Below, one piece after another: positions 44,226 through 50,612 of a stretch of DNA of 64,000 nucleotides (within the stretch, counting starts at the first letter, position 1; each line of letters starts with the position of its first letter). Under the pieces are notes generated by a model. The model was not told the DNA's origin, ran no database searches, and saw nothing but the letters and a program-made list of their open reading frames with translations. The stretch comes from Kiritimatiellia bacterium (GTDB lineage Bacteria; Verrucomicrobiota; Kiritimatiellia; JAQICX01), in assembly GCA_027858345.1 (NCBI GenBank), contig JAQICX010000182.1, positions 273-64,272 of the forward strand, in the 5' to 3' direction. The position numbers were made by a program, and so were the translations under genes.

Positions 44226-44685
44226 AGAAGGGTAACGTAACGATCTTTCCCGCCTTACGGGACTAGCAGAGCCAGCACGCAAGTGTGAAGGTTTTCATTT
44301 GGTTTGCAACAAGATCCATCATCTTAGCTTATTTTTAATACGACCACAATGTGGAAATCCACCCTTTTCCGTACAGGTTAAACGTCCGCAGGGTAAGAGG
44401 CTTTAGTTTATCTAAAGCAACAGAGCATAGCGAAGTGACAATTTGGCAGTTCTATACCATTTTTATTTGGTCGACAACAGGTAGTCCTTTTACTTTCAAA
44501 AAGTGTAAAACTATCACAGGACAAGACGAGTTCTGCGTCCTAGTTTGTCATTGGCGTAATTGTACTGCGACATGGTTGCATTGTCAAATTGATTTTTGAC
44601 TTCTGTGACTAAATCTCGGTTTGGCTCGTAACTTCTCGTTACTTCAAAGTTGTTCGGGGCAGCTTCACTCCTTTTTCCCACTTTC

Positions 44686-44710
44686 CCTTTTAAGTTTTAA
44701 CTTTCATCAC
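44686..44710 (+). repeat. Left copy of 23-25-bp direct repeat CCTTT(T/G)AAGTTTTAACTTTCATC bounding the DUF2442/DUF4160 cassette
   Basis: Matches 45888-45910 at 22/23; partner motif GAGTTCTGCGTCC.A.TTTGTCATT at 44530 and 44720. Confidence 0.7.
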
Positions 44711-44775
44711 GTCTATCCGTTGAGTTCTGCGTCCGATTTTGTCATTTATTGGGCTTAAACACAAGAGACATCCAT

Positions 44776-45596: not shown

Positions 45597-45887
45597 ATAA
45601 CAAACTCCCTATTAATTTATATGCCTTTACTATAAAACAAAACATATAATTTGTCAACAAATTCAGACAATTCTAATCAATTAATTTCTATATAGTCTCG
45701 AGGCTAGACTGCTTAACAGTGGTGTTTCATCGATTACGTTCAACACAGTTCCCTATGTACGCTTACTCTATATTGTTCAATATATAATCTCCGCTATAGA
45801 GCCAACGCTCGGTATGAGCTGATGGCGAATCTTTACTCAGAAAGCATGAAACAATGAGCTTCGCTCTACCTGTATTTTTAACTTTTA

Positions 45888-45910
45888 CCTTTGAAGTTTT
45901 AACTTTCATC
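45888..45910 (+). repeat. Right copy of the direct repeat bounding the DUF2442/DUF4160 cassette
   Basis: cctttgaagttttaactttcatc; see 44686-44710. Confidence 0.7.
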
Positions 45911-46432: not shown

Positions 46433-47203
46433 CTACTGTAAATACCACACACCATTCGTTTTGATAGCGTACATCATGTAGCTCTCGTACCACTCTTCAT
46501 AAGCAGCTTTTAATTTGATCAAGGGAGTCTCATTATCTCTGCAAATTATAGCAATGTGATCATTATACGGACTAATGCTAGAAACAATGTCGCCTTCACA
46601 TTCTGTCCACTCCAAGCGAGATGTAGGACTCATGGCTATGGAATAGAAAAACATCGTACGCTTCTTTTGGACTGCCACAGAGCAGCCCTTCGCTTCTGCG
46701 AGATCTACCACCTGATAGTTGAGATTTGTTGCAAGAACTGGTTCCAAATTGCCATTTTTGAAAGCAGAAATCACCTCAACCACTAGTTGCGTGAGTGTGC
46801 TTTGATCCTCTTGTGTGATATTTGTTATTGAATCTGATTCCTGCCAACTCCATTGATGGTCAAATGTCGGGAGATAGAAATTTGTGAAAACCACAGAAGG
46901 AACACCGTTAGGAAGTATCCATTCACAAACGTTTGTGCTTGTACCATCGGTTGCAATTCTCTCAATACGTCCGGTAACACCTCCCTGTTGCATGATCACA
47001 ACGGAATTTGAGCCTTCAACCAAGTGAGTTGTAACGATCGGTGGCAGGGCATCCCCTTTGTTGAGATACTTGAAGCCGTTGATATAGACAGCTTCTTCAG
47101 CAGAACCTTCCGCATACAGAATATAGTCTTGCCCCGATGCCCCAATGGCACAAAAGATAAGGGATACAATCGTGATGCAAAAAGTCTGTGTAACGCGTTT
47201 CAT
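46433..47203 (-). CDS. Secreted hypothetical protein; start region contains an in-frame tandem duplication of RBS+ATG
   Basis: Likely start MKRVTQTFCITIVSLIFCAIGASGQ at 47203 (GGGAGG SD); ORF track extends to 47368 through two extra in-frame 45-nt repeat units each carrying SD+ATG. Confidence 0.65.
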   Translation of the reverse strand: MKRVTQTFCITIVSLIFCAIGASGQDYILYAEGSAEEAVYINGFKYLNKGDALPPIVTTHLVEGSNSVVIMQQGGVTGRIERIATDGTSTNVCEWILPNGVPSVVFTNFYLPTFDHQWSWQESDSITNITQEDQSTLTQLVVEVISAFKNGNLEPVLATNLNYQVVDLAEAKGCSVAVQKKRTMFFYSIAMSPTSRLEWTECEGDIVSSISPYNDHIAIICRDNETPLIKLKAAYEEWYESYMMYAIKTNGVWYLQ

Positions 47204-47289
47204 GTTTGATATTTCTCCCTGTTCAAAAGTTCTATGTGATAGTTTCATGTTTGATATTCCTCCCTGTACAAAAGTTCTATGTAATGCGT
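47198..47289 (-). repeat. Two tandem 46-bp units (about 93% identical) each containing SD GGGAGG and an in-frame ATG at the 5' end of the 46433 gene
   Basis: 47198-47243 tttcatgtttgatatttctccctgttcaaaagttctatgtgatag vs 47244-47289 tttcatgtttgatattcctccctgtacaaaagttctatgtaatgc. Confidence 0.85.
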
Positions 47290-47394
47290 GTAATGGTTCC
47301 ATGAATTTAGCATCAAACTTCATGGTTTTGCTCCAGGTAATATCTTTTATATACTTGACCCTTGTCAATTAATAATTAACCATTGATAATTATT

Positions 47395-48840
47395 TCAATA
47401 TCCGCTGCCGCCACGCATTGGACCACGACATGCAAGGGGATTGAGAGAACGCAACTTCTTGCTGTCAAAATCTCCTTCACTGGTAATTAGTTTGCCATCA
47501 GCAACAAGATCACTCTTGTTCTTTTCCAGATATTTAATCAAAGCATCTCTAAGCTCAGTCAATTCATTGGTAAATCGAGGATCACTAACAAGATTATTCA
47601 TATCATCAGGGTCTGCCTGAATGTTAAACAGCTGCTCAACACCACCCTCTTTATAAAAAATGTATTTCAGCTCATCCTTATAAACAGCAGCACTACCTGG
47701 AACTTCACCATAAATGTATCTATCATCTGAAACATCGATTGCTGGATTCATCAAAGGAATCAAACTCTGCCCCTCTGCAGTCTCATCTTGCTCAATGCCA
47801 ATCATATCAAACAGTGTTGGGCATATATCCGCAGTCTGAACAGGTGTACCATCCAGAACCGAACGATCAAAACGAGAATCATTGGCTGGTGGACGGAAAA
47901 TCAACGGCACTCGTGCAGCCGACTCCAAAAAGCTATGTTTTGTGAACAAACCATGATCTCCAAGACACTCTCCATGATCAGATGTAAATATAATTGCCGT
48001 ATCTCTATCAACACCATGAGTCTTAAGAGATCCAAACAGACGCCCCAAATGATAGTCAATTTGACTAATCTGACCATAATAGCGTCGACGTGACTCCCTT
48101 ATAATCTCCGGTGTCAAATCGTCCCAATTATAAATCACCTCACGCTTCTGAAACATTGCAGGCAAATCATCATCAACCCAATCACCCTTGACTGGATCCG
48201 ATATTGTAAAGTTATCATACATGCGATCATATGGTGGAGGTGGATCAAAAGGACTGTGTGGTGCCTCAAAAACAAGATAGAGCATAAATGGCATTTCGGG
48301 GTCTCTTTGATCCAAGAACCTAATTGACTCATCAATTGACCAAGTCGTGTGATAATATTTGTCAGGAGTTATTGCCACACCGGGATAAACCTCATTGCCT
48401 CCAAGTCCTTGACCTCTAAAGGCTCCACCATAACCATGGTCTTCCAGCCACCAGATATAATCATCAGGGTGCAATGTCACATGTTCAAAACCATTACGAG
48501 AACGAGATGGTGCAAAATGCATCTTGCCAATAGCTTTTGTCTGATAGCCAGCTTCACGAACTAATCTTGCAGGCAAAGTGCTTTGTCTATCAAAGTCGGG
48601 AGCATTGTTTTCATTAAAATTGTTTATACAACGCATTTGGGAACCTGTCTTTCCCGTTAACATAGTCACTCGCTGAGGCATACATATTGGACAATCTGCA
48701 TAGGCTTGACTAAACAAAATTCCTTCAGATGCCAGTTGATTCAGATGAGGAGTCATAACAGGATGGTTGTTCTTATAGAGTCCGAGACAATCGCCCCGCC
48801 ATTGATCTGCAACAATATAAATTATATTTGGTTTTTTCAT
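47395..48840 (-). CDS. Sulfatase (formylglycine-dependent arylsulfatase family), no signal peptide
   Basis: 481 aa; N-terminal IIYIVADQWRGD and C-x-P-x-R (CMPQR) motif; …FTSDHGE…. Confidence 0.85.
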   Translation of the reverse strand: MKKPNIIYIVADQWRGDCLGLYKNNHPVMTPHLNQLASEGILFSQAYADCPICMPQRVTMLTGKTGSQMRCINNFNENNAPDFDRQSTLPARLVREAGYQTKAIGKMHFAPSRSRNGFEHVTLHPDDYIWWLEDHGYGGAFRGQGLGGNEVYPGVAITPDKYYHTTWSIDESIRFLDQRDPEMPFMLYLVFEAPHSPFDPPPPYDRMYDNFTISDPVKGDWVDDDLPAMFQKREVIYNWDDLTPEIIRESRRRYYGQISQIDYHLGRLFGSLKTHGVDRDTAIIFTSDHGECLGDHGLFTKHSFLESAARVPLIFRPPANDSRFDRSVLDGTPVQTADICPTLFDMIGIEQDETAEGQSLIPLMNPAIDVSDDRYIYGEVPGSAAVYKDELKYIFYKEGGVEQLFNIQADPDDMNNLVSDPRFTNELTELRDALIKYLEKNKSDLVADGKLITSEGDFDSKKLRSLNPLACRGPMRGGSGY

Positions 48841-49811: not shown

Positions 49812-50612
49812 ATGAATAGAATAGATAGTAAATTTTCACAACTTAAGCAGGAGAACAAAAAGGCAATAGTTCCATATATTTGCGCGGGTGATCCTAATTT
49901 GGAGACAACAGAGGATATAATTCTTGCTCTTGCGGCTAATGGTGCAGATGTAATCGAGGTTGGAGTACCTTTTTCTGATCCTATGGCAGATGGACCATCG
50001 ATTCAGTATGCATGCAAACGCGCGATTGATGCAGGAACAACTCTCAAAAAGATTTTTGAAATGGTTGTACGAATCAGAAAACAAACCGATGTGCCATTGA
50101 TTCTTTTCAGTTACTACAATGTACTTTTCAACGGTGGATTTGAAAATAATGTTAAGAAAGCCAAAGAAATCGGCATTGATGGAATGCTGATTGTAGATGT
50201 TCCTTATGAAGAGTATGACGAAGTTGAACCAATATTGAAAGCAAACGATGTGCATCTTATCAGGTTAGTTGCTCCAACAACAGACGGAGAACGTCTTGAG
50301 AGAATTCTTAAAGATGCGGCTGGTTTTGTATATTGCATTACCGTTAAAGGAGTTACGGGCGCCAGAGCTGAACTGCCTGCCGATTTACAGGAACGACTTG
50401 AAAAGATTCAAAACTTATCTAAAGCACCAATTGTTGCTGGTTTTGGAATATCTTCAGGCGACATGGCAAAGCCAATTGCTAAGCATTCTGATGGTGTTGT
50501 TGTCGGCAGTGCTTTTGTGAATCGAATTGAGAAGTCTGACACTAAAGAAGAGGCAGTTAGCTCATGTCTGGAGCTTCTAGAAGATTTAAAACGAGGAGTT
50601 TCTCCTGCGTAA
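49812..50612 (+). CDS. trpA: Tryptophan synthase alpha subunit (stand-alone, no trpB adjacent)
   Basis: 266 aa; …IPYICAGDPNLETT…, …GADVIEVGVPFSDPMADGP…, …GFGIS… TrpA motifs. Confidence 0.9.
   Translation: MNRIDSKFSQLKQENKKAIVPYICAGDPNLETTEDIILALAANGADVIEVGVPFSDPMADGPSIQYACKRAIDAGTTLKKIFEMVVRIRKQTDVPLILFSYYNVLFNGGFENNVKKAKEIGIDGMLIVDVPYEEYDEVEPILKANDVHLIRLVAPTTDGERLERILKDAAGFVYCITVKGVTGARAELPADLQERLEKIQNLSKAPIVAGFGISSGDMAKPIAKHSDGVVVGSAFVNRIEKSDTKEEAVSSCLELLEDLKRGVSPA

Follow-up and report, generated by a model that had tools for sequence, protein, structure and literature searches.

The gene analysed here is preceded by more than one copy of its own ribosome-binding site and start codon. The question raised was what such an array is: a switch, a tuner of translation, a source of extra peptide, or a repeat that the gene tolerates. 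The gene belongs to an uncultured Kiritimatiellae bacterium and lies in a 64,000-nt stretch of DNA, here called the window. The features of the locus were as follows.

46433..47203, minus strand: coding sequence (CDS) of the repeat-bearing gene from the proximal ATG, encoding a 256-aa pre-protein.
47132..47203, minus strand: signal-peptide coding part, MKRVTQTFCITIVSLIFCAIGASG, then QD, read by inspection of the translation.
47178..47302, minus strand: full repeat array (partial unit, distal unit and proximal unit), from unit dissection and alignment.
47201..47219, minus strand: proximal initiation block, with GGGAGA at 47219-47214, a 10-nt spacer AATATCAAAC and ATG at 47203-47201.
47217..47261, minus strand: distal full 45-nt unit, in the register starting at the AGG of the Shine-Dalgarno (SD) sequence, with ATG at 47248-47246.
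47262..47302, minus strand: upstream partial unit of the 54-nt-spacing type, with ATG at 47302-47300 and without an SD.
47299..47335, minus strand: relic of the 3' part of an upstream gene, containing ATG 47323 and its GGAG.
47339..47368, minus strand: promoter-like site TTGACA-18 nt-GATATT, a consensus match between the sulfatase stop (47395) and the array.

The signal peptide, as read by inspection, consisted of MKR, VTQTFCITIVSLIFCAIGA and A-S-G, followed by QD. It had a positive n-region, a hydrophobic core of ~17 residues, and small residues at -3 and -1. This pattern was kept across the alignment of 15 family members, and residues 1-23 formed a lone helix, of low confidence, in the structure model. 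These are the features of a Sec (type I) signal peptide, which the product is predicted to carry. A lipoprotein (type II) signal peptide was rejected, because the Cys of LIFC comes after Phe; this Cys is changed to Tyr in P0003 and to Ser in P0004. The product is a predicted secreted two-domain protein, composed of a beta-sandwich and an NTF2-like domain.

Searches of Pfam and NCBIfam assigned no family to the protein, to its neighbours or to the extended forms, and Foldseek found no significant match for the modelled protein in the PDB. A blastn search of a plasmid collection gave no match, and a metagenome scan with protein alignment returned three loci, all previously known. The 90% protein cluster of the window product held a single member sequence among ~15 billion proteins. 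Close homologs formed only four 90%-identity clusters in 5.8 billion representative proteins, and a profile search of 1.84 billion representatives yielded 17 relatives.

On the minus strand, the order was sulfatase stop, promoter-like site, ATGs 47323, 47302, 47248 and 47203, and then the signal-peptide coding part and QD. The four ATGs share one frame, and the unit contains no in-frame stop. Compared with the proximal ATG 47203, initiation at 47248, 47302 or 47323 adds 15, 33 or 40 aa. TRF reported a tandem repeat at 47197-47282, with a period of 45, 1.9 copies, 95% matches and a score of 158. Repeat comparison gave two 44-nt copies, 45 nt apart, that were 93% identical (41/44 bases). The 40-nt unit pattern was found at these two sites alone in the 64-kb window, and 0 times in 100 shuffles. 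The leader and the array were identical base for base in four more assemblies of the same population (L001-L004, two from JGI and two from Logan), so the array was not an artefact of assembly.

In each full unit, an A-rich spacer of 10 nt lies between the SD and the ATG, and the first ~8 codons are present as a diverged copy. The last part of the proximal unit is CDS codons 1-8, and the unit covers ~25 nt of the CDS; its segment ATGAAACTATTACACAGAACTTTTG matches the CDS segment ATGAAACGCGTTACACAGAATTTTTG. This sharing of the first ~8 codons indicated that the repeated object is the entire translation initiation region. Translated, the unit reads MKL(L/S)HRTFEQGGISN, of which half is a relic of the signal-peptide n-region and half is translated SD and spacer. 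The distal SD, GGGAGG at 47264-47259, straddles the unit boundary. Units of 54 and 45 nt differ by a 9-nt internal duplication or deletion. The upstream partial unit was collinear with the partial-plus-full unit of a relative, L005 (57/62 bases identical), and resembled a fusion of units U0 and U1 of another, L014.

These results upheld the core of a preliminary description of this DNA, namely an in-frame tandem repeat of SD and start codon, which was seen by TRF, by repeat comparison and in five assemblies. The two peptide strings quoted in it were correct and the two units are in frame. The further partial unit that it placed upstream was present, as a 54-nt variant with ATG 47302 and the SD deleted, and inspection and the 15-member alignment agreed with its N-terminal Sec-type signal peptide. 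Its measures had to be changed in several places. The period is 45 nt and not 46 bp, which would break the frame. GGGAGG, said to be in each unit, was found in the distal one, but the proximal unit has GGGAGA. Hexamer and ATG are 10 nt apart in both units, where 7 had been given, and an upstream start would add 15, 33 or 40 residues in place of 15 or 30.

A 19-mer of the unit, RRAATATCAAACATGAAAC, was also used to scan a genome collection, and gave 44 single matches in unrelated taxa, none in Kiritimatiellae, where ~17 chance matches were expected from the pattern length and the collection size. The unit is therefore not a dispersed repeat in species representatives, a collection in which the MAG itself did not turn up. 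In a promoter and terminator scan, sites were no commoner than in shuffles and none fell within the array. The promoter-like site upstream is not evidence of function, since shuffles predict 3.7 sites of this kind in the region and 3 were seen. No terminator-like site was found between the sulfatase gene and the secreted-protein gene. A duplicated promoter was considered and dropped, with no supporting signal.

To compare the four ATGs, duplex energies were calculated with a generic anti-SD sequence, which was assumed, the organism's own 16S rRNA lying outside the window. The distal ATG 47248 gave -11.1 kcal/mol, which was stronger than all of the 30 other ATG-start long ORFs of the window (median -5.9, best -8.8 kcal/mol). 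The proximal ATG 47203 gave -8.2 kcal/mol. ATG 47323, preceded by GGAG, gave -5.6 kcal/mol, and ATG 47302 gave -0.5 kcal/mol. The leader fold was weaker than 195 of 200 shuffles (z=+1.9). Together, the strong SDs and the unstructured leader made the distal and proximal starts look competent. Initiation probably occurs at both, perhaps more often at the distal one, as judged from these energies. ATG 47302, which has no SD, is unlikely to matter, and so is ATG 47323, which lies within the gene relic and has a weak SD.

All 11 distant homologs in the 15-member alignment begin at a Met aligned with the proximal ATG, with the signal peptide directly after it. By this alignment, the proximal ATG 47203 was shown to be the ancestral start.

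Other kinds of leader were considered. Rfam gave no match near the locus, whether the window was searched at the gathering score or 46900-47600 at E up to 1. A riboswitch or known structured leader was rejected on this result and on the lack of a stable fold. An upstream ORF, leader peptide or attenuator was also rejected, because in the window the upstream ATGs all run in frame into the gene and the leader is unstructured. A CsrA-type leader, prompted by the repeated GGA motifs, was dropped in the absence of a supporting signal.

The number of units was then compared among the relatives, with CDS identities to the window where given.

L010-L012: 91% CDS identity; a single SD and ATG block.
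L013: 77% CDS identity; a single block.
L005-L009: 94% CDS identity; one full unit and an upstream partial unit, with ATGs 54 nt apart.
L014/L015: second member of the L005 protein cluster; TRF 4.8 copies, period 45, 87% matches.
L014 unit U0: ATG out of frame, with a 20-codon ORF.
L014 unit U1: ATG lost.
L014 unit U2: GGGAGG.
L014 unit U3: GGTAGG, -6.5 kcal/mol.
L014 unit U4, the true start: GGGAAG, -5.1 kcal/mol.

The window array has two units and a partial one. Thus, counts of 1, 1 plus partial, 2 plus partial, and ~5 occur in lineages whose CDSs are 87-99% identical. The array is a member of the tandem-repeat polymorphisms of bacteria (minisatellites or VNTRs), being made of head-to-tail units whose copy number varies by lineage. 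L005 and L014 differ in unit number with CDSs that are 98.7% identical. Their difference is no simple change by +/- n x 45, and the upstream region has been replaced. The distal unit of the window was 96% identical to U3 of L014, which indicated that the array predates the split of the two lineages. The array was identical across the assemblies of each lineage (window type, 5; L005 type, 6; L014 type, 3; L010 type, 4), a uniformity that rests on consensus assemblies, which are blind to minority variants in copy number.

The tempo of change was estimated from the leader. Between the window and L005, 5/62 nt of the leader differed (8.1%), and the four-fold degenerate sites of the gene differed by 8.1% also. 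By inspection, 5/5 of these leader differences change an amino acid in the extension frame, which gave no sign of constraint on the extension peptide. Copies within arrays had diverged to 87-98% identity. The 3/44 differences between the window copies are about the neutral distance between lineages, so these copies have not been recently homogenised or turned over. SDs were weakened in U3 and U4 of L014 and in the proximal unit of the window (-6.5, -5.1 and -8.2 against -11.1 kcal/mol), and lost in the partial units of the window and L005. Taken together, the neutral-rate leader, the diverged copies and the lost ATGs and SDs indicated that the array is old and evolves at roughly the neutral pace, with no frequent turnover by slippage.

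Two patterns, each seen in few units, leave room for selection or gene conversion in place of drift and could hint at function. The 17-mer AATATCAAACATGAAAC was shared without change by all six full units that carry an ATG, in three lineages; 0 changes in 17 nt against 3 in 28 nt is not significant (an estimate, from five lineages). In addition, exactly one in-frame block per array retained a perfect GGGAGG. In both multi-copy arrays this was the most upstream in-frame block, and the three downstream blocks were all weakened (3/3 downstream versus 0/3; one-sided Fisher p=0.05, n=6).

We interpreted the array as a slowly evolving minisatellite (VNTR) of the translation initiation region, tolerated ahead of a cleaved signal peptide, and we put the probability of this reading at about 0.6. 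In the ancestral duplication, the copied segment would have begun shortly before the SD and ended near codon 9, its junction showing a TTTTG/TG microhomology. The flanking repeats so formed would then have permitted more unequal recombination or slippage, the 9-nt in-frame indel, and deletions. Related lineages would thereby have come to carry 1 to ~5 units. As the 15-codon unit has no in-frame stop, any in-frame start would yield the same pre-protein with a longer n-region. Each unit adds K and R besides E, so the extended n-region would remain net positive. Long Sec signal sequences are functional, for example those of autotransporters (PMC2805444). That the extension impairs export, as had been proposed earlier, was an assumption, against which stand the net positive n-region and the long Sec signals that work. 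Removal of the extension by signal peptidase would make the mature secreted protein the same for every start. With the mature protein unaffected, the array would be nearly neutral and free to drift.

We infer the duplication mechanism, the start usage and the tolerance of export to the extension from comparison of these sequences. The persistence of the array for as long as the lineages have been separate counts against a neutral reading. Beside being tolerated, the minisatellite may function as a translation tuner.

The alternative that survived best, which we hold to be tentative and not probable, is that of an adaptive amplifier or rheostat with multiple starts. Several blocks on an open leader would load more ribosomes or give a standby site, and selection would set the copy number, tuning the amount of secreted protein. 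Each full unit is indeed a complete block, with an SD that is unusually strong (-11.1 against a best of -8.8 kcal/mol in the 30 genes), and the leader is unstructured. The identity of the 17-mer around the ATG in six units, the retention of the array in three lineages since before their split, and the different copy numbers even of 98.7% identical CDSs would also fit. On the other hand, the leader has diverged at the neutral rate, and the ATG or SD has been lost in several units. A single block suffices in L010, L013 and all distant homologs, and the conservation statistics, drawn from five lineages only, are weak.

A related proposal appeared doubtful to us, namely a selected translational rheostat of an undescribed kind. 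Here the number of units would set ribosome loading as well as the length of the n-region, tuning output or the timing of export. In both multi-copy lineages GGGAGG was intact upstream and the SDs were weakened downstream, which hinted that the working start might shift over time to the most upstream in-frame unit.

It also appeared improbable that the repeated peptide, (MKL[L/S]HRTFEQGGISN)n, is itself a selected N-terminal extension that, for instance, slows or redirects targeting. The frame is open through all units, each unit re-creates a start of the MK...R type that resembles an n-region, and in both multi-copy arrays no SD is stronger than that of the in-frame unit farthest upstream. 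However, half of the peptide is translated SD and spacer, and the differences between the window and L005 were all amino-acid changing (5/5). No Pfam model matched it, including those of extended signal peptides, and it is absent in L010, L013 and the 11 distant homologs.

The preliminary description had favoured an expression switch by replication slippage, which we took to be a phase-variable one, where frequent slippage would turn expression or export on and off within a population. Unit number does differ between lineages (1, 1 plus partial, 2 plus partial, and ~5), so that its expectation of copy-number change among relatives was borne out, and the units share exact stretches of 14-17 nt that are able to misalign. 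The slippage and the switch themselves fared worse. The copies are few, long and imperfect (87-98%), and the 3/44 differences between those of the window are close to what neutral sites show between lineages. One fixed array is carried by every consensus assembly of a given lineage, and the protein cluster of the window product has one member sequence among ~15 billion proteins. A unit of 45 nt, or 15 codons, is unable to shift the frame, and the difference between L005 and L014 involves a replaced upstream region and not a change of +/- n x 45. Known contingency loci have many perfect units of 1-7 nt, unlike this array. We therefore consider such a switch very improbable.

Chance similarity or an assembly artefact is practically negligible, in view of the TRF score of 158, the 0 unit-pattern matches in 100 shuffles, the identical sequence in JGI, Logan and NCBI assemblies, the orthologous arrays in other lineages, and the length of the array (90 nt), which is shorter than a typical read.

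The array was compared with known systems. Bacterial minisatellites in coding regions or at the 5' ends of genes likewise consist of units some tens of nucleotides long, arranged head to tail, and vary in copy number among related strains; they arise by slippage or unequal recombination, their units often have a length divisible by three, and they are tolerated in frame. The array differs from them in that the unit is a complete initiation region and each copy a potential start site. That the repeated unit is a complete start site is the unusual aspect of the array. Narrow keyword searches of the literature found no described tandem duplication of an SD and start codon.

At the lic1 locus, CAAT repeats are combined with several upstream ATGs. 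Such contingency loci resemble the array in that a repeat tract adjoins or overlaps the beginning of a gene whose product is exported or lies at the surface, and its copy number could in principle change the output. Their units are perfect, numerous and 1-7 nt long, they mutate often, and they work by shifting the frame or altering the promoter spacing. The array has 2-5 imperfect 45-nt units, is neutral with respect to the frame, and shows one fixed form per lineage. The hmw1A promoter of Haemophilus influenzae, for comparison, has 13-24 copies of 7-bp repeats (PMC8262952). Assignment to the phase-variable contingency loci was rejected on unit length, on the imperfection and small number of the copies, and on the absence of an effect on frame or promoter spacing.

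Genes with alternative in-frame starts, and autotransporters with long signals, share with the array several starts ahead of one ORF. In the autotransporters, the N-terminal stretch before the core is exportable and is removed with the signal peptide (PMC2805444). The starts here differ in coming from a recent duplication, in varying in number, and in lacking a conserved extension motif. The extended products gave no Pfam match to the autotransporter extended signal-peptide region at E up to 1.

In engineered tandem or bicistronic ribosome-binding sites, an initiation block placed upstream prevents the one after it from closing, and expression can become higher or more stable. Such designs rely on a short leader ORF that is separate and ends in a stop, whereas the upstream starts of the array are in frame and free of stops.

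The region upstream of the array holds part of another gene. The relic was derived from the upstream gene of L014, which encodes a 539-aa Cys-rich secreted protein. Its local alignment to L014 2703-2739 scored 19, with 0/1000 shuffles as good, and for its alignment to the L013 piece 2/1000 shuffles were as good. The relic peptide is KFDAKFME in the window and KFYASFMG in L014. The junction between relic and array lies within a shared CATGG. In the window, deletion has reduced the 539-aa gene to this relic, and the same deletion took away the SD of the upstream partial unit. The public gene model, MDA3799669.1, a 296-aa hypothetical protein of a Kiritimatiellae MAG, starts from ATG 47323. This annotated start is probably wrong, the start of the family, 47203, lying 40 codons downstream.

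The gene neighbourhood also varied. In the relatives, the gene is in a cluster of uncharacterised secreted proteins (L005 4219-5055; L013 1728-2567; L014 1218-2837). The 539-aa Cys-rich protein is encoded upstream of it, and a 278-aa paralog downstream (hhalign probability 99.9%, 24% identity). The window has lost both of these, and a sulfatase gene (47395-48840, Pfam PF00884) now precedes the gene. In L013 the gene is truncated to 189 aa (1045-1614), and the upstream 539-aa gene is fragmented, with many stops (3-1042). The locus of L013, the most distant of the close relatives, appears to be decaying.

Several short modules were seen nearby. An intergenic, near-consensus promoter-like module, TTGACA-17 nt-TACAAT...CCAATGACAAAC, lies at window 44543-44587 on the minus strand. 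The TACAAT module recurs in L005 2911-2946 with 94% identity, abutting the repeat unit exactly at CAAAC|ATG, as if it were a portable promoter or 5' module placed where a rearrangement has joined the DNA. Other short intergenic modules are repeated in the window (44337-44382; 44528-44552 and 44722-44746; 44682-44708 and 45884-45910), and the window's short modules are common to L005 (1563-1608 and 1767-1805) despite different surrounding genes. Between 44.3 and 47.4 kb are small genes on the same strand, namely two DUF2442, one DUF4160, a 97-aa membrane ORF and the secreted protein, a layout that looks cassette-like. The L005 and L010 neighbours include HEPN and nucleotidyltransferase genes that are toxin-antitoxin-like. 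Contig L002, from a sister sample, was 99.6-100% identical to the window except for ~100 nt that were unaligned (~49869-49967). This strain-variable intergenic patch lies between a 206-aa ORF and trpA.

Were the array no more than a tolerated minisatellite, it would be of mainly practical value. It shows how gene callers are misled, since the public 296-aa model begins inside the relic of another gene, and it would be a natural example of cheap duplications ahead of a cleaved signal peptide. If, instead, the number of units tunes translation or export, the array would be a natural counterpart of engineered tandem ribosome-binding sites, and would provide a simple, evolvable dosage control for secreted proteins.
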